Below, piece by piece: positions 2 to 13,212 of a stretch of 13,212 bases of DNA; within the stretch, counting starts at the first letter, position 1; every line of letters begins with the position of its first letter. A program made the position numbers and the translations under genes. A model generated the notes under the pieces. The model was given only the letters and a program-made list of their open reading frames with translations. It did no database searches and was not told the origin of the DNA. The DNA comes from a virus. The stretch lies in UHGV virus genome UHGV-0125291; one strand, given 5' to 3'.

Positions 2-541
2 GAGCGTCGAAATAAGGGGCGGTCCAGGCCAAAAACCAAAAAGGATCCATTCTTATCGCTTGCGCCGGTAAAAGAAATTTCTCCACATGCGAAGGCACTT
101 GCAGCACTGGCAAAGAACCCAGACCTGCGCGACGGAAATTGCGAGCACTTCGAGCAGGTTTTCATTTTTGATTACTTCGAACGCAAGCACCCTGACATCT
201 ATGAGCTGTTGCATGCAACGCCTAACGGAGGGAAACGTTCAAAAGCAACCGCCGGGAAAATGAAGGCTGAAGGGCAGAAAAAAGGTTATCCGGACATGAG
301 TCTCGATAAAGCATGCGGTATTTATCACGGCATGCGAATTGAGCTTAAAGAACCAAATGGTAAAGCCCCGACGAAAGAGCAGATCGCCTGGATGCGCAGG
401 CTTAGAGAGGAAGGTTACTACGTCGTTCTTGCGTATGGTGCAGAACAAGCGATAACCGCCATCCTGGAATACATAAGCCTTAAAAAGGGTGAGGCTATTG
501 AGCATGTATTGAACGGCGACAAGTGGTTGTATGCTGCTTAA
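2..541 (+). CDS. VRR-NUC-like nuclease domain protein, 5' partial (frame open to the window edge)
   Basis: The reading frame is open from position 2 with no in-frame ATG upstream; the only in-window start is TTG at 209, which lacks a convincing SD. The C-terminal part (GYPDMSL...GMRIELKEPNGKAPTKEQIAWMRRLREEGYYVVLAYG) fits a PD-(D/E)xK / VRR-NUC pattern (PD...ELK). The family call is pattern recognition, not a search. Confidence 0.55.
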   Translation, partial: ERRNKGRSRPKTKKDPFLSLAPVKEISPHAKALAALAKNPDLRDGNCEHFEQVFIFDYFERKHPDIYELLHATPNGGKRSKATAGKMKAEGQKKGYPDMSLDKACGIYHGMRIELKEPNGKAPTKEQIAWMRRLREEGYYVVLAYGAEQAITAILEYISLKKGEAIEHVLNGDKWLYAA

Positions 542-607
542 AATAATAAATTAATTAGTGCATATGTGCTCTTTGATATAGCGCACATTAACATCGGGAG
601 AATAATC

Positions 608-763
608 GTGTCATTCAAGGCTAATTATGAATCGCTGGCATCGATCATGCCGCGTAATGAACAGGAAGCAGATGCTGTAGTGGACCCGGTAATCGCTGAA
701 ATGAATGCTCGCCTGGAGGCTGAATTTGCAGCTGAGAATGAACATACCACCCAGGGCGACTAG
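608..763 (+). CDS. small acidic hypothetical protein (about 51 aa)
   Basis: GTG at 608 lies 7 nt after GGGAG (595-599); the ORF track gives 566..763 from an upstream start without an RBS. The 3' end overlaps the next gene and contains its SD. Confidence 0.3.
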   Translation: MSFKANYESLASIMPRNEQEADAVVDPVIAEMNARLEAEFAAENEHTTQGD

Positions 764-1367
764 GACTGTTTTTTGTGTCGGTAGCGGTCCGTCACTCACT
801 CGTGAGGACTGTGCTGCTATAGAAAAAACTGGCTGTTCAATCATCGCGGTTAACAATTCCTGGCAGATGTTCGATGACATTTATGCCTTATACGCCGGTG
901 ATTTGTCATGGTGGAAGCAATACGGATCCACCATACCGGGAGGGAGATTCCGCAAAGTGACAGCCAACCTGGCGGCGGCGAAATCATTTTCGTTGGAGTA
1001 CAGGCGATATTGTGGACCGGCGGAAGGGGTAAATAGCGGCGCGCAGGCTATCAGTCTGGCTGCTGAATCAGGGGCTGAAGTAGTGGTATTAGTCGGCTAT
1101 GACTGTTCTCTGCAAAACGGCCTTCATTGGCATGGCGCGCGCCCTCAAGCACTACGGAATCCAACGCAGGTGTCTATTTCAAAATGGCAACAGCAGTTCC
1201 TGGATACCCGCAAAAAACACGCAGATTTACATATTTTGAATGCAAGTAGGAGCAGTGCAATTCAATGTTTCCCAAGAATAAATTTAGAGGCAGTGATCGC
1301 GTTATTATCGTCGGCAGTGGCCCAAGCGCCGCAAACTTTGTTGCGCCGCGCGGAGTGCCGATTATAG
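726..1367 (+). CDS. hypothetical protein with N-terminal GxGPS motif (VGSGPS...IIAVN...VLVGYD), paralog A
   Basis: ORF track 705..1367. The preferred start is TTG 726, 6 nt after GGAGG (715-719); ATG 705 and ATG 738 are alternatives. It shares motif order and spacing with the next gene. A possible DUF115/MptE-like Rossmann-fold assignment is weak. Confidence 0.6.
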   Translation: MQLRMNIPPRATRTVFCVGSGPSLTREDCAAIEKTGCSIIAVNNSWQMFDDIYALYAGDLSWWKQYGSTIPGGRFRKVTANLAAAKSFSLEYRRYCGPAEGVNSGAQAISLAAESGAEVVVLVGYDCSLQNGLHWHGARPQALRNPTQVSISKWQQQFLDTRKKHADLHILNASRSSAIQCFPRINLEAVIALLSSAVAQAPQTLLRRAECRL

Positions 1368-1891
1368 CGGTCAATGGGGCCATCGACTGGCTTAACCGCG
1401 CTTCTTATTTTTTCACCCTTGATCCATCGCCAGACAATATGCGGCGCGTTGGTCGTGGCCGCCGTCGCCGTGGTGTTTGTTATTGCATGGCGCTACCCGA
1501 TGTTAAAGAACGTGAGGTCAGAGACGGCGTTCTGTGCTTCCGTCGTGTGGCTGAGCGCGGCACGGAGCCAAAAAATACGAATTCTCCCGAGTGGTGGGCG
1601 TGGCGCTGGTCCGCACATTTCGGACTTTGCGAAGATGAGAATGAAATTGCCAGCGGCAATAGTGCATATGGTGCTCTGAACCTGGCTTTCCATATCGGAT
1701 TCAAACATGTAGCCCTGGTGGGCGTTGACGCTACGCAAGAACCACGCGTTCATTCCGGCGGCACGCCAAAAAATCTAAGTCACCTGCCTTTGTTATTCCA
1801 GTCTGCGCGTGAACAGATTGACGTTGTTTCATGCGGGAAAATGGGAGGTATTCCGCAGATGACTCTTAAAGAATGGCTGAAGAATACATGA
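1265..1891 (+). CDS. hypothetical protein with N-terminal GxGPS motif (IVGSGPS...IIAVN...LVGVD), paralog B
   Basis: ATG 1265 is preceded by AGGAG (1248-1252). It is the only in-frame start before the conserved motif, and it forces a 103-nt out-of-frame overlap with paralog A. The stop TGA 1889-1891 overlaps the ATG of the next gene. Confidence 0.65.
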
Positions 1892-2565
1892 TGGCACCAA
1901 CAATTTATCACCGTATCGACGGTACCAAATACAGGAATATCTGGGTTGTTGGTGATCTGCATGGTTGCTACACCAGACTGATGTCCGAACTCCATCGTGT
2001 GGATTTTGACCCTGCGCAGGATTTACTGATATCGGTCGGCGACCTTATCGATCGCGGCACCGAAAATGTTAAATGCTTGGAGCTATTGCAGATGCCATGG
2101 TTCAGAGCGGTTATGGGCAACCATGAGCGGCTGATGATTGATGCGTTAAGTCCTGATGGCAACGTGAATAATTGGCTAATGAATGGCGGTCAATGGTTCT
2201 TCATGCTGGACGCTGATCAGGAAATATTAGCCAGGGCGCTGGTGGAGTTGGTAAGACGACTGCCCTATATCATTGAGTTGAACACCGGGCAAGAAACTAT
2301 CGTTATAGCCCATGCCGACTATCCGGATAATGAATACCAATTCGGTAAGGAGGTGCCGCTTTTCAACGTTGTCTGGGCGCGCGAGCGTATCAGTGATTCG
2401 ATGGATGATATTGGTGGCGAAATTTCGGGCGCAGATCGTTTTATCTTTGGTCACACTCCGGTGAAAAGCCCGAAGACATTCTGGAATCAGCAGTATATCG
2501 ACACTGGTGCCGTATTTTGCGGAAACCTGACATTGATGAAAGTGAAAGGTGATGGTGCAGCATGA
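1888..2565 (+). CDS. Ser/Thr protein phosphatase, lambda PP (NinI / ORF221) family metallophosphatase
   Basis: Metallophosphatase motifs GDLHGC, GDLIDRG and GNHE are present, and the protein is collinear with lambda phosphatase as recalled. The start at ATG 1888 overlaps the upstream stop (ATGA); ATG 1873 and ATG 1891 are alternatives. P1 carries an equivalent gene (ppp) by memory, so the symbol is left blank. Confidence 0.9.
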
Positions 2566-3263
2566 AGATTGCTTTAGTTTTTCGCTCTGGTGGTGACTAT
2601 AACGCTTCCGATGTGCAGTGGCTGGTTAATCAACTGCCAAAAGGCTATGAAATTATTTGCCTGACAGACCTGAAGCGTTTACATGTACCTGGCGTCAAAG
2701 TTGTCCCATTGATCAACCAGTGGCAAAAGTGCCGTGGCTGGTGGGCGAAAATCGAGTTGTTCCGACCGGATATAACCGATGATCTGTTCTATCTGGATTT
2801 GGACACGGTTATTGCCGGTGATATACGCCCAATCCTTGAGAATCCACCAACCAGCTTCACCATGCTTAGGGATTTTTACCATCCACAATATCGTGGCAGC
2901 GGTGCCCTGTGGATACCAAATAGTGTAAAAGCGCATATCTGGAGTTCATTCTGGCAAGATCCGGAAGGTTGGATTTCTCGTTGTGTCACTACTGAGTGCT
3001 GGGGTGATCAGGGGTTCTTACGGAAGGTTATGGGCGATGATACACCAGCATTTCAGGATCTGTATCCAGGATGGTTTGTAAGTTACAAGGCCGATGTTGT
3101 GGAACCTGGTTCAAAATATGCGAGCGCGCGTTACTCCAGGGGGAATGGGGCATTACCAAAGGACTGCCGAATAATCTTTTTCCACGGCAAACCGCGACCT
3201 CGCGAAGTGTCAGAGGATTGGCTTCCCCTTATCAGCTCGTTTTTTGAGCGAGAATCAGAATAA
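2562..3263 (+). CDS. hypothetical protein with DxD motif ([12 protein letters not shown]), possible GT-A-like glycosyltransferase
   Basis: ATG 2562 overlaps the phosphatase stop (ATGA at 2562-2565), with AAGGTGA upstream. The N-terminal beta-alpha start ([12 protein letters not shown]) followed by DLD resembles nucleotide-sugar transferases. The function is inference only. Confidence 0.6.
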
Positions 3264-3264
3264 T

Positions 3265-3281
3265 ATTGCTCTAATAATTCC
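3265..3281 (+). promoter_or_regulatory. P1 C1-repressor operator-like site (ATTGCTCTAATAATTCC), overlapping a possible -35 (TTGCTC)
   Basis: 14 of 17 positions match the asymmetric P1 C1 operator consensus ATTGCTCTAATAAATTT (recalled from literature). It sits 2 nt after the stop of the upstream gene and is followed at a fixed 19-nt offset by ATTTTTAAAAC, as is the copy at 5406. Confidence 0.5.
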
Positions 3282-3289
3282 ATATTTTT

Positions 3290-3319
3290 AAAACGTGATG
3301 TACACTCATCACGTTTTTT
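3290..3319 (+). terminator. Rho-independent terminator
   Basis: An 11-bp stem AAAACGTGATG / CATCACGTTTT with a 6-nt loop (3301-3306) is followed by a T-run ending at 3319. Confidence 0.6.
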
Positions 3320-3330
3320 ATTAGAGCAAT
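3314..3330 (-). promoter_or_regulatory. second C1 operator-like site, inverted orientation
   Basis: The reverse complement of 3314-3330 is ATTGCTCTAATAAAAAA, a 14/17 match to the consensus. With the site at 3265-3281 it forms a 13-bp inverted repeat enclosing the terminator hairpin. Confidence 0.45.
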
Positions 3331-3344
3331 CTACAAGGTGCACT

Positions 3345-3563
3345 ATGTGGCCATTCCGACGGAAATATCACTACTGGCTGATCGCCTTTGTTACGCCGAC
3401 CGGCGGTATCAGGCATGTCATCACCAGGTATCGCAACAAGAGACTCACCTTAGCCAGAATTTTACAGGCTGCCATAGGTGAGGGACTGGATACAAATTGC
3501 GTAGTCCTTCCTCCTTCATACTTAGGAAAAATGACCGAAGCACAAGCTAATACGGAACTTTGA
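3345..3563 (+). CDS. small hypothetical protein (72 aa)
   Basis: ATG 3345 lies 4 nt after AAGGTG (3335-3340). Its stop TGA 3561-3563 is 1 nt from the next ATG, suggesting coupling. No recognisable motifs. Confidence 0.4.
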   Translation: MWPFRRKYHYWLIAFVTPTGGIRHVITRYRNKRLTLARILQAAIGEGLDTNCVVLPPSYLGKMTEAQANTEL

Positions 3564-3564
3564 A

Positions 3565-4827
3565 ATGAGCACTTCAGCACAAAACCAATCAATCGAAAAT
3601 GTATCTATCCCTGACGTCCTGAATGCCGGTATCCCGGCCATTATCCAGAACATCCGGGCCGCGCAACGCCGCGTTAGTTGTGATGACCTCACAGCGCGTT
3701 TTTTTGATAATGCGGTTCAGTCAGCGGAGATGCTTCACGCACAGCTTATTGATGTTTATAACGCAGAAGCTGATAGCCATAACTCCCTGGTAGATGCAGC
3801 TGAAAATATGCAGTTGGATCTCGGTCTGAAGGGTAAAGAAATTGAAGAGCTTCAGCTGGAAATTGAACATTTGAAACGCCAGCAACAGGACGCGATCGAC
3901 GATGCGACGCATGACGCCAACCAGCGTGCTGATAATGCCGAACGTATAAGCATTGAGCTGGAAACAAAACTCAATGAAATGACCGCGATGGTTGAACTGC
4001 GGAACTCACAGATTTCAACGCTAAAATCTCAATATAAAGAGATCATGAAACTTGATCCTTTTAACCTTGAGAAACGCTATAACAAAGCTAAAAGCGAGCG
4101 ACAGGAACTGCGTAAGCAGGTCGCCGACCTTAACCAACAGCTCAAAAAAACTATTAAAGATGCAAGCGAAGCGCGCGTGGCATTTGCTAATAAAAAAGCA
4201 GAGGTTACCGCGCTGGTTAATGAGAATGCCAAATTTGCGACGCTCAAGAAGGAAATGTATGGCATTACTGAGCGCCGTTTCCCTGCAAGCAAACTTCATC
4301 CGACGTTAGGGCAAATCTCCTTCTTCCCGCGCCTCCTGGCTTATGGGATCTCATCGCCTAAAGAGTTCAATAACGAGCGTCCTTATATCGTTTCTAAGCT
4401 GGACTTTGCTTATCAGTTCTGCTGCGACATGGGCTATGCCATTGATATCCGAATCAACGAATGGTTGATGCCAAACTTCCAGCCGTTGGCAATTTTCCGC
4501 GAGTTCCAGCCGGAAGGTTGGGTAGAGTTCTTCCATGAATTGATCTGTAAAGAGATGGAAAGCCGCCGCCCGGAATTGGTCCGTCGAGTTGAGTGGGCGC
4601 AAGAGGTTATGTTGGCAGATGCAGAGCTGCCGTTCGAACCGGAATTCATTGATGATCTGGCAACTAAAGGGCTGCATACCCTGTTTGATGTGGTTACCCG
4701 CCGTCATGAGCAGTTGGTTGTCGAATTGGGTTTAGAGGAAACTGCGGCAAGAAGACTTCTCGATGTTTGCTATGCACGTAGCGATGCATGGGAAAAAGAG
4801 AACGGCGGCACTATTTACGTTCGCTGA
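3565..4827 (+). CDS. coiled-coil protein of unknown function (420 aa) with a C-terminal globular domain
   Basis: Long ORF. Residues about 80-230 are a heptad-rich charged segment (EIEELQLEIEHLKRQQQ..., ELRKQVADLNQQLKK); the C-terminal roughly 190 aa is aromatic and Cys-containing. No catalytic motif is recognised. Confidence 0.8.
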   Translation: MSTSAQNQSIENVSIPDVLNAGIPAIIQNIRAAQRRVSCDDLTARFFDNAVQSAEMLHAQLIDVYNAEADSHNSLVDAAENMQLDLGLKGKEIEELQLEIEHLKRQQQDAIDDATHDANQRADNAERISIELETKLNEMTAMVELRNSQISTLKSQYKEIMKLDPFNLEKRYNKAKSERQELRKQVADLNQQLKKTIKDASEARVAFANKKAEVTALVNENAKFATLKKEMYGITERRFPASKLHPTLGQISFFPRLLAYGISSPKEFNNERPYIVSKLDFAYQFCCDMGYAIDIRINEWLMPNFQPLAIFREFQPEGWVEFFHELICKEMESRRPELVRRVEWAQEVMLADAELPFEPEFIDDLATKGLHTLFDVVTRRHEQLVVELGLEETAARRLLDVCYARSDAWEKENGGTIYVR

Positions 4828-4847
4828 TAGTTACAGTGTCACTTTTA

Positions 4848-4880
4848 ATGCTGGTGGAGTGCGCCCACCAGCATTTTTTT
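4848..4880 (+). terminator. Rho-independent terminator
   Basis: A 10-bp stem ATGCTGGTGG / CCACCAGCAT with a 7-nt loop is followed by a T7 run (4874-4880), 20 nt after the stop of the 420-aa gene. Confidence 0.7.
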
Positions 4881-4899
4881 CGTCCAATGAGGAGGGCAT

Positions 4900-5406
4900 T
4901 TGAGTATTTTCAATAAACACGCACACCAGGAACGTCCGTACATCGTCATAGTAGATATTGATGGGACGATATCAGAGGCAACGGAAGACAGGCTGCATTT
5001 ACTTCCACCACCTGGCAAAGGTGCATTAACAGAGCACTGGAACGAGTTTAACCTTGCCTGTGACACTGATGCTCCCATCACTCCAGTTATTGATATGGTG
5101 CGCCAGTTGTCCGGCATTTACACCCTCTGGTTTGTAACCGGGCGCTGTGAGATCGCAAGGGATAAAACACGAGCCTGGTTGCGTAAGCACGTAACAAATG
5201 GGGCTGAGCCTTTGCTATCTATGCGTCCTGCCACCGATGACAGAAATGACGGCCCAGCAAAGATTGATCTCCTTAAGAAAATTGGTCTAAGCAAAATTGC
5301 GTTCGCGCTGGAAGATAAGATTGAAGTGGCGCGTGTTTTCAGGAGGCACGGCGTGCTTACGTTAATGGTCAGGGAGTATGAAAACGCGCTTCTCCATCAA
5401 CAATAA
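4900..5406 (+). CDS. HAD-superfamily phosphatase-like protein
   Basis: TTG start at 4900 is 4 nt after AGGAGG (4890-4895). HAD motif I DxDGT is present (VIVDIDGTI), with a downstream Thr (FVTGR), Lys and LEDK consistent with motifs II-IV. Confidence 0.75.
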   Translation: MSIFNKHAHQERPYIVIVDIDGTISEATEDRLHLLPPPGKGALTEHWNEFNLACDTDAPITPVIDMVRQLSGIYTLWFVTGRCEIARDKTRAWLRKHVTNGAEPLLSMRPATDDRNDGPAKIDLLKKIGLSKIAFALEDKIEVARVFRRHGVLTLMVREYENALLHQQ

Positions 5407-5422
5407 TTGCTCTAATAAATCA
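5406..5422 (+). promoter_or_regulatory. third C1 operator-like site (ATTGCTCTAATAAATCA), overlapping a possible -35
   Basis: 15 of 17 positions match the C1 operator consensus. It starts at the last base of the HAD gene stop codon and is followed at the same 19-nt offset by ATTTTTAAAAC (5425-5435). Confidence 0.5.
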
Positions 5423-5455
5423 TGATTTTTAAAACAGAGAAAGTGAAAATAAAAA

Positions 5456-5476
5456 CATGCCGCAAGGCGCGGCATG
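5456..5476 (-). terminator. GC-rich hairpin acting as an intrinsic terminator in the minus orientation
   Basis: An 8-bp stem CATGCCGC / GCGGCATG with a 5-nt loop. On the minus strand it is followed by UUUUUAUUUU (complement of 5441-5455); on the plus strand there is no U-tract, so there it would be a 5'-UTR structure. Confidence 0.4.
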
Positions 5477-5504
5477 TATCCAATCAATCACAGGAGCTGA
5501 AGAT

Positions 5505-5591
5505 ATGAACACGGCATTCAAAATCATTATGACCGCGATCTATTTCTGGCTGTTCTTTATCACTTTTGGCAGCATTGTCGCGCATGGGTAA
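5505..5591 (+). CDS. small hydrophobic peptide (28 aa, MNTAFKIIMTAIYFWLFFITFGSIVAHG), one predicted TM helix
   Basis: ATG 5505 is 8 nt after AGGAG (5492-5496) and the stop is TAA 5589-5591. It is below the 60-aa cutoff of the ORF track. It lies downstream of the operator/promoter module at 5406-5435. Confidence 0.35.
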   Translation: MNTAFKIIMTAIYFWLFFITFGSIVAHG

Positions 5592-5626
5592 GGGGAGTAT
5601 ATTAGCCATTTGGAACCCCACGGTCT

Positions 5627-5654
5627 CTTGCGGGTTTAATTAAGAACCCGCAAG
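5627..5654. other. perfect 10-bp stem-loop (CTTGCGGGTT-8 nt-AACCCGCAAG), not a canonical terminator
   Basis: Located 17 nt from the hsdR stop. The A-run is 3' on the plus strand and the U-run is 5' on the minus strand, so neither orientation gives hairpin plus U-tract. Confidence 0.4.
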
Positions 5655-5670
5655 AAAAACACGAATTGGG

Positions 5671-8600
5671 CTATATTTTTCCGCCTACGCCTTTAAACTT
5701 CTCAATAAACGAGACGATTTTCTGGAAAACTGCCTGTTTTTTCGTTTTATATTGCGGATTTAAAGGACTGAGTCTGGGCAGTGTCTCGTTTAATTCCGTG
5801 CCATTTTCGGTGGCGTATTCGCGTTTTAAAGACGTGCGAATATAGCGTTTCGCCGCCTCTTCATTGAGATTTTCTTCTTTTATCAATGCTTCTGCTTCAC
5901 GTTGCTGTTCGCGTTGAGCAAACGTAAAGAATGCGTCAATGATGCTGGCTTTGTCCGGTAAATCATCCAGGTTCGTTTGCTGAATAAAATCGACCACCAG
6001 GCCCTCTTTAGCACGGTTCCCCAGGCTTGAACGAATTAAGCGTTTGACCTCTTCGATCATTTCGCCCTTGCCTTTATTTTGTCTGTTGTGTTCGAAAATC
6101 AGTCCAAGGATATAATCCAGGTTTATTTCCTGAGACTTCAGCAAATCGACCTCAAAAACTACGTCATCCCAGTCAGTGGTTGATTTCTCTTTTTTCTCAG
6201 CTTCTTTCTCACGGCGCTGCCAGTCGCGAATATCGTTATAGGCAGAACGATAATCCTGAATCTTGCGATCAGCAGGGAGACGAATTGTTTGCAATTCAGC
6301 GAACTTTTCATCATCCACATAATGTTCTGCTTTGAATTTTTCTACCGCAACAGGATCGCTAAGATCGATTTGTTGCAGGGCTTTCAGCGTGGCAAATTCA
6401 TCATAGTTTTGCAGGATGTTCTCGGCACGCAGGTATTCACCAAACAGTTTAACGAAGTCTTTCTTCTCTTTTTCACTTTCAATACTGGTAGGGTCAGGGA
6501 ACCGTTGTTCCAGTTCTGAAACTACTGTCATGAAGCCGCGTTTAGCTTCACCAGTGGCAGCATCAGTAAAGCCTTCCATATACTCTGCATAACTCTTTTC
6601 TAAAACCACATTTTTGGTGTTTTTGTCACCAAACAGCGTTATGGCATCAATAGTTGAGCGTTCCAGATCCCGGAAAGTGACGATATTACCGAAGGTTTTA
6701 GTTGCATCATAAATACGGTTGGTGCGGGAAAATGCCTGCATCAGGCCGTGAAAACGCAAGTTTTTATCGACGAATAGCGTGTTCAATGTTGGAGCATCGA
6801 AGCCGGTTAAAAACATCCCCACGACAATTAACAGATCGATATCCTGATTTTTAACCCGTTGGGCTAAATCGCGATAGTAGTTCTGAAAACCGTTACCGTC
6901 GGTGCTGAAGTTAGTTTTAAAATAGCTGTTATACTCACGAATTGCAGCGTCAAGAAACTCTTTAGCACTGCTGTCCATTGCGCTGGTATCAAAAGTTTCA
7001 TCGGAAATTTCACCAATGGCATTTTGTTCTTCATTGGCGGCAAAGGAGAAGATTGTCGCAACACGCAGCGGTTTATAGGTAGCCGATTTATTAGCTGCTT
7101 CCTCTTGTAACCGTTTAAACGTCGCATAATAGGCTTTCGCGGCATCCACGCTGCTCACTGCCAACATAGCATTAAAACCTTTTGAGCCAGGGAAGGTACG
7201 GTGAGTTTTCTGGCGGAAATTATTCAGAATATATTGCGTGATTTCCTGAATACGCATGGGATGAAGAAACGCCTGCTGATTTTCAGCCGCACTTAGTTTT
7301 TTCTCGTCAGTTTCTGTCTCTAAAGACTTAAACTGTGGCCGCACATCGTTGTAGTCCACCTTGAATTTGAGCACTTTTTCGTCACGAATCGCATCGGTAA
7401 TTACATACGAATGCAATTCACGACCAAATACGCTGGCGGTTGTTTCTGAGCCTAAGGCGTTTTCCGGGAAAATAGGGGTGCCGGTAAAACCAAACTGATA
7501 ATAGCGTTTGAATTTCTTCTTCAGGTTTTTCTGCGCTTCTCCAAACTGGCTGCGGTGGCATTCATCAAATATAAACACCACTTGCTGATTGTATACAGGC
7601 AGGTCGCTTTCTGCTTTCATCAGGTTATTGAGTTTCTGAATAGTAGTGACGATAATTTTGTTATCGTCCTTATCCAGATTTCGTTTAAGGCCTGCGGTAT
7701 TTTCCGAGCCGTTGACGCTGTCTGGCGAAAAACGCTGATATTCCTTCATGGTCTGGTAATCGAGGTCTTTCCTGTCGACCACAAAGAAGACTTTATCAAT
7801 AAAGTCCAGCTCTGTTGCCAGACGCGCGGCTTTAAAGCTGGTGAGGGTTTTACCAGAACCGGTAGTGTGCCAGATATACCCACCGCTTTCCGGTTTTGAC
7901 CAGTTCTTCGCTGTAAAGGAACTCTTAATTTTCCACAGAATGCGCTCGGTGGCGGCAATCTGGTACGGTCGCATCACCAGTAGCGTCTGACTACTGTCAA
8001 AAACGCTGTAGTTCACCAGAACATTCAGCAGAGTATGTTTCTGGAAAAAGGTAGCGGTAAAGTCTTTGAGGTCTTTAATCAGCGTGTTGTCTGATTTCGC
8101 CCAGTTCATGGTGAAGTCAAAACTGTTTTTATCGCGCTTTGTCGTGTTGGCAAAATAACGGGTATCGGTGCCGTTAGAAATGACAAACAGTTGCAGATAC
8201 TTAAACAGGGAATTTTCGCTGTTAAAACTCTCTTTACTGTAACGATGTATCTGGTTGAAAGCCTCACGAATCGCCACCCCGCGTTTTTTTAGTTCGATTT
8301 GCACCAGCGGTAAACCATTAACCAGGATCGTGACGTCATAACGGTTAGCATGAGAACCCGTCTGTTCAAACTGCTGGATAATCTGCACCTTATTGCGCAT
8401 GAGATTCTTTTTATCTATCAAATAGATGTTCTCAAGTCGCCCGTCGTCAAAAATAAAGTCGCAGATATAGTCGATATGGATTTTACGGGTCTTATCCAGA
8501 ATGCCATCGCTGGGGTTGTCCAGATACTGCTCCGTGAAGCGCCGCCACTCGCTGTCATTAAACATCACACCATTGAGGCTCTGAAGCTGTTCCCGAACAT

Positions 8601-8787
8601 TAGACAGCATTGCCGACTGTGATTTTACGGAAATAAATTCATAACCCTGATTCCGCAGGTCCTGAATCAGTTCACGTTCCAGGTCCGATTCGCTCTGGTA
8701 GCTGTCGCTTGTTTGCTCAGCTTTGATGTACTTATCAAGGACGATAAAGTTATTGGATTCAGCAATGGTGTGTGTTTGATGAGTCAT
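5671..8787 (-). CDS. hsdR: Type I restriction enzyme R subunit (HsdR), EcoR124 (Type IC) family
   Basis: 1038 aa. Walker A ([11 protein letters not shown]) and a DEAD-box-like motif (FDECH) are present. The N-terminus [24 protein letters not shown] matches EcoR124I HsdR as recalled. RBS AAGGA lies 5 nt before the ATG. Confidence 0.95.
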
Positions 8788-8908
8788 AGCGCATCCTTTG
8801 TGCCGCCTGGCAAGGGCCGGAAAGGCGTTAAGAGTGACTTCCGGCGCGTAAAAAATAGTCTATATACTGACCGGATGTTAAGGAGGCCCGGTCGGTAGCA
8901 ATGGTCAA

Positions 8909-10143
<1,235 letters not shown>

Positions 10144-10147
<4 letters not shown>

Positions 10148-11706
10148 GATTGCGCCTCGTCACCTTCAATCTTTGCCACAATTGCATCAATATCTTTACG
10201 CAACTGGTCGATTTTGCTGACCGTGGTTTTCAGCTCAGCATTCAGCTCACCGATATCGATAATTTCGCGGTTATCTTTCGCTTCCACATAGCTGCTCACC
10301 GACAGGTTATAGTCATTCGCGACAACAGTCTCAAACGTGACAGATTTTGCCAGATGAGCAACATCTTCCTTGCTGGCAAATACCTGCATAATCTGTTCGA
10401 TATGGGCATCGGTCAGGATATTGTTGTTGGTCTCTTTTTTGAACAGTTCGCTGGCGTCAATAAACTGAACGTTGGTATCCGTTTTATGTTTAGACAGAAC
10501 CAGAATGTTTACGGCAATGGTGGTGCCAAAGAACAGGTTCGGTGCCAGTGAAATCACGGTTTCGACATAGTTATTGTCGACCAGATACTGACGGATTTTC
10601 TGCTCCGCGCCGCCACGGTAAAAAATACCCGGGAAGCAGACAATCGCAGCACGACCTTTGGCCGAAAGATAGTTCAGCGCATGTAATACAAACGCAAAGT
10701 CAGCTTTGGATTTGGGGGCCAGAACGCCAGCCGGGGCAAAACGCTCATCGTTAATCAGCGTCGGGTCATCGCTGCCAATCCATTTCACCGAATACGGCGG
10801 GTTAGAAACGATGGCATCAAACGGTTTTTCATCTCTGAAGTGCGGCTCAGTCAGCGTATTGCCCAGCTTGATATCAAACTTGTCGTAGTTGATGTTGTGC
10901 AAAAACATGTTCATACGCGCCAGGTTATAGGTCGTATGGTTGATTTCCTGACCAAAAAAACCTTCTTCGATGATATGGTTATCAAACTGTTTTTTCGCCT
11001 GCAACAACAGTGAGCCGGAACCCGCTGCCGGGTCGTAGATTTTGTTAACGCTGGTCTGCCCGTGCATAGCCAGTTGTGCAATCAGCTTGGAGACGTGCTG
11101 CGGTGTAAAGAACTCGCCGCCTGACTTACCAGCATTCGCCGCATAGTTAGAAATCAGGAACTCATAGGCATCACCGAACAGGTCAATCTGATGTTCGTTG
11201 AAGTCACCAAGTTTTAACCCTTCAACCCCTTTCAGAACCGCAGCCAGGCGGGCATTTTTATCTTTAACGGTGTTACCCAGGCGGTTACTGGTGGTATCGA
11301 AATCAGCAAACAAACCTTTGATGTCAGCTTCTGAAGGGTAACCGTAAGCAGAACTTTCGATAGCAACGAAGATGCTGTTTAAATCTGCATTCAGTCTGTC
11401 ATTGGTATTTGCTTTCGCAGCTACGTTGCAGAAAAGCTGACTGGGGTAGATGAAGTAGCCTTTAGTTTTGATGGCATCGTCTTTAATGTCATCAGTAATT
11501 ACGCTGTCATCCAGTTTCGCATAACAGATACTGTCATCACCGGCTTCAATATAACTGGAAAAATTTTCGCTGATAAAACGGTAGAAAAGCGCGCCCAGAA
11601 CGTATTGCTTAAAATCCCATCCATCGACCGAACCCCTGACATCGTTAGCAATTTGCCAGATTTGACGATGAAGCTCTGCACGTTGTTGAATACTTGTCAT
11701 TTTCAT
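10144..11706 (-). CDS. hsdM: Type I R-M DNA methyltransferase subunit (HsdM), N6-adenine
   Basis: 520 aa. The AdoMet motif ([10 protein letters not shown]) and the catalytic NPPY motif (SNPPYS) are present. A second Met 2 codons in (ATG 11698-11700) is an alternative start. Confidence 0.95.
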
Positions 11707-11845
11707 CCACTTATTTCAGGCTTATGTAATTGGCGGTGATTCTACAGCAACTTGGATGCTTTAGCAGTTCGGACATTAGGCTACGAATGACCTGCCTAGA
11801 GGTTTGTTAAGCCGCAAAGTGCTGGTGCTTTATGCCTGTGAAGTT

Positions 11846-11873
11846 TATAATTGTGTACACATAACGAGTACAC
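11846..11873 (+). promoter_or_regulatory. phd-doc promoter -10 and Phd/Doc operator palindromes
   Basis: Consensus TATAAT (11846-11851) is followed immediately by the perfect palindrome TGTGTACACA (11852-11861) and a second GAGTACAC site (11866-11873), then SD GAGG (11874-11877). This is consistent with the autoregulated P1 phd-doc operator. The -35 is not confidently placed. Confidence 0.6.
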
Positions 11874-11882
11874 GAGGTGTTT

Positions 11883-12104
11883 GTGCAATCCATTAACTTC
11901 CGTACCGCGCGTGGCAACCTTTCTGAAGTGCTCAACAATGTTGAAGCCGGGGAAGAGGTTGAAATCACCCGCAGAGGCCGTGAGCCAGCAGTAATTGTCA
12001 GCAAGGCTACTTTCGAAGCCTACAAAAAAGCGGCGCTGGATGCTGAATTTGCATCCCTGTTTGACACCCTGGACTCCACCAACAAGGAACTGGTTAACCG
12101 ATAA
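11883..12104 (+). CDS. phd: Phd antitoxin (prevent-host-death), P1 type
   Basis: A GTG start at 11883 gives [73 protein letters not shown], 73 aa, matching P1 Phd as recalled. The ORF track starts 2 codons upstream at 11877. The stop TAA overlaps the doc ATG (TAATG). Confidence 0.9.
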
Positions 12105-12484
12105 TGAGGCATATATCACCGGAAGAACTTATTGCGCTTCATGATGCGAATATAAGCCGCTACGGCGGCCTGCCGGGAATGTCAGATCCGGGTAGGGCAG
12201 AGGCCATTATCGGGAGAGTTCAGGCCAGAGTTGCCTACGAAGAGATCACCGACCTTTTCGAAGTCTCCGCCACCTACCTGGTGGCTACAGCGAGAGGGCA
12301 TATATTCAATGATGCCAATAAGCGTACCGCGCTAAACAGTGCGCTGTTATTTCTACGCCGTAACGGGGTGCAGGTATTTGATTCACCTGAACTGGCAGAC
12401 CTTACCGTAGGGGCTGCGACCGGAGAGATATCTGTATCTTCTGTCGCCGACACGTTACGTAGATTGTATGGTTCTGCGGAGTAG
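12104..12484 (+). CDS. doc: Doc toxin (death-on-curing), Fic-fold kinase
   Basis: 126 aa with the Fic/Doc motif HIFNDANKR. It is translationally coupled to phd and the sequence matches P1 Doc as recalled. Confidence 0.9.
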
Positions 12485-12488
12485 ATTA

Positions 12489-12668
12489 ATGGCACGCAAA
12501 TACAACAAATTGTCCCGTGACGCGTTAAAGATGCTTCTTGATGGCGTGAGTCGCCGCAAGGTAAAGCAATACCTGGTTGGTAAGCAAATTGGTGCCAGGA
12601 CAGCTATTGCTGTGTTATGCCGTCAGGAAATGGTTGTGCTTAAACAGATAATGCCGGGCAGCAGATAA
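12489..12668 (+). CDS. small basic hypothetical protein (59 aa), in the position of P1 pdcA
   Basis: ATG 12489 is 7 nt after GGAG (12478-12481) and 4 nt after the doc stop. The ORF track start (12468) overlaps doc and is less likely. The identification with P1 pdcA is positional only. Confidence 0.5.
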   Translation: MARKYNKLSRDALKMLLDGVSRRKVKQYLVGKQIGARTAIAVLCRQEMVVLKQIMPGSR

Positions 12669-12695
12669 AGCCCAATCAGTGATTAAAGGTGTGAT

Positions 12696-13163
12696 GTGAA
12701 AGCCGTAATTACTCCCTTTGTACAGAAAGAGCTTGGCCTCGCCACGTTCAAAGTGGATCAGGAGGTCCGAAAGCTGGTGGAGGCTGGCCGTAAATTTATT
12801 ATGGAGCCGGTGCCGCGTGAGTTAATCGAGCACATGGAAGACGGCCTCGTTGTTACCGAGCAAACCATGGCAACAAATGAGGCGTTGCAGCCGTTTTTTA
12901 ACAGCGATGAACTGTTTCGCCGTATTGGTGGAATTGACGCGCTGGTGGCGTGGTTGCGCAGGAAAGAGGGGCAATGCCAGGCCGCAGATCGTAGCTGGTG
13001 TGACAACCATATTGTCCACGCAGAACGAGACAATAGCGCGGTGTTGTTGTGCTGGCATCACGATAACCATTACCGGATGCGTGGTTTTAATGAGCTGAAA
13101 GAAACGCTGCATAATAATCGCGTTAACTGGATACTGGATGTCGCCCGTCAGGAAATGGGGTAA
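12696..13163 (+). CDS. Cys/His-rich hypothetical protein (155 aa), in the position of P1 pdcB
   Basis: GTG 12696 is preceded by AAAGGTG. The C-terminal half carries C-x7-C-x3-H-x3-H...C-x-H-H, a possible metal-binding cluster. Function unknown. Confidence 0.6.
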
Positions 13164-13212
13164 TGACTCCAACTTACTGATAGTGTTTTATGTTCAGATA
13201 ATGCCCGATGAC

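Follow-up and report, generated by a model that had tools for sequence, protein, structure and literature searches.

A P1-type phd-doc addiction operon with a GTG antitoxin start codon, predicted to be functional, next to a type IC hsd island

The locus considered here lies near the right end of a window of 13,212 nucleotides from the virus genome UHGV-0125291, where the window means the whole stretch of DNA that was analysed. The original prediction placed an intact phd-doc addiction module with its operator at 11846-12484, and the question that it raises is whether the proteins, their coupling and the control region are those of phage P1, and whether such a module would stabilise its replicon together with the adjacent hsd genes. 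It is highly probable that the region is the phage P1 phd-doc type II toxin-antitoxin operon on a P1-like phage-plasmid, that it is functional, and that the effect of a GTG start codon in phd is compensated. The features of the locus, for which 11600-13212 was read directly, are as follows.

11823-11828, plus strand: -35 hexamer of Pphd, TGGTGC, weak; same bases in P1, whose record NC_005856 annotates them as minus_35_signal of 'sigma 70 promoter Pphd'
11846-11851, plus strand: -10 hexamer of Pphd, TATAAT, consensus; read directly, and mapping to the P1 minus_10_signal of Pphd
11852-11861, plus strand: left operator site TGTGTACACA, a perfect 10-bp palindrome directly 3' of the -10; same as P1
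11853-11860, plus strand: 8-bp core of the left operator site, GTGTACAC, from a motif scan; same as P1
11866-11873, plus strand: right operator site GAGTACAC, an imperfect palindrome, from a motif scan; same as P1
11874-11877, plus strand: putative Shine-Dalgarno (SD) GAGG, 5 nt 5' of the phd start codon, read directly; same in P1 and phi456
11883-12104, plus strand: phd antitoxin gene, 73 codons and stop, GTG start at 11883-11885, from protein identity to P1 Phd and family models
12104-12484, plus strand: doc toxin gene, 126 codons and stop, from protein identity to P1 Doc and family models
12468-12668, plus strand: pdcA, 66 aa, overlapping the 3' end of doc; annotated as pdcA in P1 and phi456
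12696-13163: pdcB, 155 codons against 347 aa in P1, cut by an IS1 end, from comparison with P1

The 73-aa product of phd is identical to P1 Phd at 100% of residues over its full length (PDB 3HRY/3K33/4ZM0, E = 2e-42), including residues 51-73, which were crystallised as a peptide together with Doc in 3DD7, while the 126-aa product of doc is identical to P1 Doc at 100% of residues, also full length (PDB 3K33 chain A, E = 3e-78). The claim that both proteins match those of P1 is thereby borne out against the PDB chains. Phd passes the cut-offs of Pfam PF02604 PhdYeFM_antitox and NCBIfam TIGR01552 phd_fam, and Doc passes those of Pfam PF02661 Fic/DOC (38 bits, cut-off 24) and NCBIfam TIGR01550 DOC_P1 (133 bits, cut-off 38.65). 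The catalytic motif of Doc, HIFNDANKR at residues 66-74, fits HxFx(D/N)(A/G)NKR and is unchanged across 85 distinct related sequences among the matches listed; the alignment check proposed for it showed no disabling substitution, and it returned the operator of P1. As to gene order, the antitoxin comes first and the toxin overlaps it, the same arrangement as in the P1 annotation, and the predicted TAATG coupling overlap is present at 12102-12106, where the last base of the phd stop TAA (12102-12104) is also the first of the doc ATG (12104-12106).

At the nucleotide level, the locus differs from P1 phd-doc (NC_005856 88046-88647; PDB 3K33, 3HRY, 3DD7, 4ZM0), whose Phd and Doc amino acids are identical to those encoded here, by the phd start codon, which is ATG in P1 and GTG in the window, and by seven further silent differences within phd and doc. 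Common to both are the -35 and -10, the two palindromes set 13 bp apart, the SD, the TAATG overlap and, further downstream, pdcA. The closest sequences over the 701-bp module region, among the matches listed, are phi456 and an IMG/VR contig, with three differences: the start codon, Doc S18N and one silent site. Doc residue 18 is N in phi456 and in the IMG/VR locus L005 and S in the window. Among the relatives, third codon positions account for 25 of the 35 polymorphic sites of phd and for 51 of the 82 of doc, an excess which indicates that both genes are under purifying selection. Of the 122 matched loci, 108 were compared over the full 701 bases. Identical Phd is encoded by 96 of all 108 compared loci, which include loci with a mosaic Doc; in at least nine of the 108 IMG/VR relatives (L003-L122), the C-terminal ~40 residues of Doc, codons ~87-126, are very different, which suggests that recombination may have occurred inside doc.

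The control region follows P1 closely. In an alignment with P1 NC_005856 and phi456, positions 11810-11882 equal the P1 Pphd region except for one base, 11813, which lies upstream of the -35. The palindrome TGTGTACACA stands at 11852-11861, directly after the consensus TATAAT at 11846-11851, as had been predicted, and the P1-type operator was matched; however, the second site GAGTACAC at 11866-11873 had been left unmentioned. Likewise, the -10 is where it had been placed, but the annotated -35 at 11823-11828 is weak and lies outside the span first given for the promoter. The span 11846-11880, proposed earlier for an electrophoretic mobility shift assay (EMSA), takes in both operator sites, which have the -10 on one side and the ribosome-binding site on the other. 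The 10-bp palindrome by itself is not rare, since ~13 would be expected in 13 kb; the motif GWGTACAC, expected 0.35 times in the whole 13.2-kb window, occurs solely at 11853-11860 and 11866-11873. The palindrome centres are at 11856.5 and 11869.5, giving a spacing of 13 bp. PMC1802561 describes the Phd operator as a pair of 8-bp palindromes with GTAC cores, their centres 13 bp apart, each bound by a Phd dimer, with Doc promoting cooperativity. The operator of the window, made up of two predicted sites at the matching 13-bp spacing, thus appears to be this published two-palindrome phd-doc operator.

A sigma-70 consensus scan of 11650-12750 called no promoter. This null result was not counted against Pphd, given a -35 already known to be weak and a sequence identical to the annotated promoter of P1; the poor -35 also accounts for Pphd going uncalled in a simple consensus scan. 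The status of Pphd as a putative promoter comes from its match to the annotated promoter of P1. In the 5' leader of phd (11865-11907), a hairpin is predicted in which phd codons 6-8 pair with the SD GAGG and with a portion of the right operator half-site; its minimum free energy is -8.5 kcal/mol for 11865-11915, the same in the ATG and GTG alleles.

More distant relatives share parts of this design. YefM-YoeB and other Phd/YefM-family operons share the Phd/YefM N-terminal DNA-binding fold with Phd of the window (Pfam PF02604), and YefM-YoeB-type operons, as described in PMC1802561, share the paired GTAC-core palindromes and the antitoxin-first autoregulated operon. The toxin of the window is a Fic/Doc kinase, in contrast to the RelE-type RNase of YefM-YoeB, and its two proteins are P1 Phd and Doc, not distant homologues.

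As the window proteins are 100% identical to the P1 proteins that have been studied, the mechanism described for P1 can be applied to the window. Pphd, with its weak -35 and consensus -10, would transcribe phd, doc and probably pdcA. Phd dimers on the palindromes at 11853-11860 and 11866-11873 would repress the promoter; Doc would bridge the Phd dimers as co-repressor, and excess Doc would break the complex (conditional cooperativity). Doc, a Fic-fold kinase, would phosphorylate EF-Tu at Thr382 so that translation stops, unless neutralised by the C-terminal tail of Phd. Labile Phd, degraded by ClpXP, would run out after replicon loss, and the segregant would be arrested or killed; such post-segregational killing would favour keeping the plasmid prophage and its cargo, including the adjacent type IC hsd genes. 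Conditional cooperativity, the phosphorylation of EF-Tu Thr382 and the ClpXP lability of Phd have been reported (PMC3920265; PMC4803016), the last being attributed in PMC4803016 to Lehnherr and Yarmolinsky 1995. It has also been reported that Doc is neutralised when the disordered C-terminus of Phd folds onto it, and that Phd binds the operator through its N-terminal domain (PMC4803016). A labile antitoxin, a stable toxin, EF-Tu Thr382 phosphorylation and post-segregational killing may accordingly be presumed for this locus by identity with P1.

The one feature that does not follow P1 is the start codon of phd. In the alignment of the start-codon region, the window reads GAGGTGTTTGTGCAA, against GAGGTGTTTATGCAA in P1 and phi456, so that phd begins with GTG at 11883. 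The module had been called intact, which holds for the proteins, the Doc motif and the promoter and operator, all as in P1, but the GTG start of phd had been missed. An in-frame GTG at 11877, two codons upstream, was considered as the phd start and rejected: it partly coincides with the SD GAGG, lacks an SD to serve it, and is found in P1 too, where translation begins at the ATG. The SD and its 5-nt spacing before the phd start are the same as in P1 and phi456.

The rarity of this GTG was examined in several collections. An IMG/VR scan with R at the start position returned at least 120 loci, and the base at the phd start position is A in 122 of 122 matched loci (the IMG/VR loci among the matches listed, together with P1 and phi456). 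A 41-mer centred on the GTG, which megablast seeds only when the G is present, gave 0 matches in 20,395 records of complete E. coli genomes and 0 in the 72,556 records of a plasmid collection; the control ATG 41-mer, in the complete E. coli genomes, matched 1105 records (1047 genomes). The exact GTG 32-mer is absent from GTDB genome contigs, from JGI metagenome contigs and from IMG/VR. All relatives examined have the canonical ATG start, from which the window departs; an ATG start does not define the family, but the GTG start is the sole departure of the locus from the P1-type family. That no GTG was met among more than 1000 relatives suggests that ATG is strongly favoured at this position. 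The GTG start could be mildly deleterious, or an error; the choice lies between a base-call error and a rare polymorphism that is tolerated or tunes expression.

Several considerations bear on how a real GTG start would act. GUG begins ~14% of E. coli genes, initiates with fMet, and does so at 10-100% of the AUG level (bioRxiv 10.1101/063800). No properly spaced SD of its own was found for doc on direct reading, the nearest AAGGA (12084-12088) ending 15 nt before the ATG, and doc translation is therefore most likely coupled to that of phd through TAATG. Weaker initiation at GTG would consequently lower Phd and Doc together; since the negative autoregulation of the operon responds to the Phd:Doc ratio, the loop should compensate the weak start by de-repression. 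Read in this way from the sequence, the module is almost certainly functional despite its GTG start.

An alternative is that the module is fully canonical, the G at 11883 being a base-call, assembly or cloning error over a true ATG start. The complete absence of GTG from the collections searched, set against the ATG control (1105 E. coli records) and the 122 of 122 matched loci, fits this reading, and the bases private to the window within the well-covered interval 11000-13212 are two, 11883 and 12521 (in pdcA), a number which fits sporadic errors as well as rare SNPs. However, 174 substitutions and no gaps separate the window from its closest whole-length relative, and all long ORFs of the window are open, which points to a distinct sequence of good quality, and GTG is a legitimate start codon, so such a variant would survive selection. 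A-to-G transitions, moreover, are the commonest class of natural mutation. An error is regarded as unlikely, if still a serious contender.

It may also be supposed that the GTG is real and alters the behaviour of the module, either by giving less Phd relative to Doc, that is, a hair-trigger or leaky toxin with slower growth or more persisters, or by lowering both proteins so that addiction is weakened. GUG initiation can be as low as ~10% of that at AUG (bioRxiv 10.1101/063800), the universal ATG among relatives suggests that the expression level matters, and in E. coli a GTG versus ATG start in lacI measurably changes regulation and fitness (PMC11445065). Against this, doc has no compensating or inactivating change; there is no independent, well-spaced SD before doc, so coupling should hold the ratio; negative autoregulation and ratio sensing should buffer a translation defect; and the A-to-G change leaves the predicted structure of the 5' mRNA as it was (-11.0 vs -10.7 kcal/mol). 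Altered behaviour of this kind is considered distinctly unlikely. A related reading, in which a selected or tolerated GTG re-sets the operon through less antitoxin translation, chronic partial de-repression of Pphd and a changed Phd:Doc reserve, with altered timing or stringency of killing or altered persister formation, is likewise improbable.

The remaining part of the question concerns the replicon and the hsd genes, whose features in the window are given below.

about 700-5406: pmgP-ppp-pmgQ-pmgR-pmgS-pap, in P1-like gene order
5671-11706, minus strand: type IC hsd island hsdR-hsdS-hsdM, a neighbour outside the phd-doc operon
5671-8787, minus strand: hsdR, 2280 bits over all 1038 aa against EcoR124I HsdR (PDB 2W00), nearly identical
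8909-10147, minus strand: hsdS, aligning end to end with EcoR124 HsdS
10144-11706, minus strand: hsdM, passing TIGR00497

The window is collinear with P1, phi456 and P1-like plasmids such as pHFQ1, and the replicon is, by this gene order, taken to be a segment of a P1-like phage-plasmid. The closest whole-window relative is the plasmid pHFQ1, at 98.66% identity over 228-13212, with 174 mismatches and 0 gaps. Common to the window, phi456 (OR339795) and pHFQ1 (NZ_AP023428) are pap, hsdR-hsdS-hsdM on the reverse strand, phd, doc, pdcA and the IS1-truncated pdcB; phd of both phi456 and pHFQ1 starts with ATG, unlike that of the window, and phi456 has a different, longer hsdS region. The closest kin also include the flanks of the pDXX1 (EcoDXXI) and R124 hsd loci. 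In P1, by contrast, the upstream neighbour of phd is humD rather than hsdM, and pdcB is not cut by IS1 as it is in the window. P1 homology is lost between about 5595 and 11801-11807, an interval that in P1 holds pmgT through humD. The right breakpoint of the island coincides with the humD stop codon (P1 87973 = window 11810); the Pphd -35 follows 13 nt downstream, so the Pphd promoter is untouched by the island.

The island itself encodes an EcoR124-type (type IC) type I restriction-modification system. HsdS has the EcoR124-type N-terminal, central and C-terminal conserved regions, with three TAEL repeats against two in the aligned EcoR124 HsdS chain, and both of its target-recognition domains are unrelated to those of EcoR124. 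Background on the TAEL repeats is given in PMC3874165. Three repeats and divergent domains predict an N7-type spacer and a recognition sequence differing from those of EcoR124I/II.

The association of phd-doc with hsd genes is not new. The P1 record notes that its phd-doc stretch is 98% identical to the sequence upstream of the EcoDXXI hsd locus, and in 111 informative IMG/VR loci, among the matches listed, the neighbour of phd is hsdM in 14 and humD, the P1 arrangement, in 97. Type IC hsd loci flanked by P1 DNA were reportedly described by Tyndall et al. in 1997 (pmid 9157244, listed in PMC12707154), and the phd-doc/hsd linkage has thus been known since that year. The module is present in 1233 of 5426 complete E. 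coli genomes (~23%), and 1245 of its 1331 copies there are on plasmids. With proteins identical to those of P1, a matching promoter and operator, and relatives mostly on plasmids (1245/1331), the original expectation of a replicon-stabilising module is supported. The further claim that the adjacent hsd island is stabilised by position stands in part: the linkage is real, the whole replicon would be stabilised and deletions that remove phd-doc would be penalised, but the evidence shows no separate local effect on the island.

The position of the module also admits the view that its main selected role is phage defence (abortive infection) or competition among P1-like plasmids, within a small defence island that includes the restriction system, rather than maintenance. 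The module directly adjoins a type I restriction-modification system, hsdM-phd linkage recurs in those 14 of 111 related IMG/VR loci among the matches listed, and toxin-antitoxin systems have generally been implicated in phage resistance (PMC3920265). In the other 97 of the 111 loci listed, however, the module lies beside humD, which is not a defence gene, and the literature covered here yielded no evidence of anti-phage activity of P1 Phd-Doc. P1 phd-doc is, moreover, said to have been established experimentally as an addiction system by Lehnherr et al. in 1993 (listed in PMC4803016), and a primary role in defence is very improbable. The possibility that the window is degraded or artificially mutated can be rejected, as every long ORF is open and the alignment with pHFQ1 has 0 gaps.

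For discovery, the locus is of little use: it is the standard P1 addiction module, its genomic surroundings were described in 1997, and the GTG start of phd alone is unrecorded in the collections searched. Its value lies in annotation: phd-doc marks the replicon as a P1-like phage-plasmid, explains why that replicon, type IC restriction genes included, would not easily be lost, and flags the GTG start of phd as an unusual base. If the GTG is true, the variant would be a natural allele for the antitoxin translation rate in a ratio-sensing toxin-antitoxin circuit, and a natural test of start-codon strength feeding into conditional cooperativity.

Downstream of doc, pdcA is probably on the same transcript as phd-doc. 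A terminator scan found no terminator above chance between doc and pdcA; a single hairpin within doc (12328-12343) was considered as a terminator and rejected, being at chance level (1 found, 0.9 expected). The pdcA product has no Pfam or NCBIfam family match. At 12521, pdcA codon 18, the window has C against A in 94 of 94 covering relatives among the matches listed, changing GAA (Glu) to GAC (Asp). The last ~53 bases of the window (13160-13212), beginning GGTAATGACTCCAACTTACTGATAGTG, are the IS1 terminal repeat; alignments to P1 end at 13159/13160, and phi456 and pHFQ1 carry IS1 there (InsB / IS1 family transposase).

At the left end of the window, phi456, pHFQ1 and other best-matching relatives align from position 228 on, while P1 and several plasmids align from position 1, which marks a further mosaic junction at ~228; phi456 has an IS1 upstream of pmgM. 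Between pap and the hsd island, the P1 C1-repressor operator OpmgT, ATTGCTCTAATAAATCA, is kept at 5407-5423, together with the PpmgT promoter region (5424-5600), although pmgT itself has been replaced. Any transcription from PpmgT would cross a 44-codon ORF at 5457-5591, which relatives annotate as hypothetical, and meet the 3' end of hsdR head-on.
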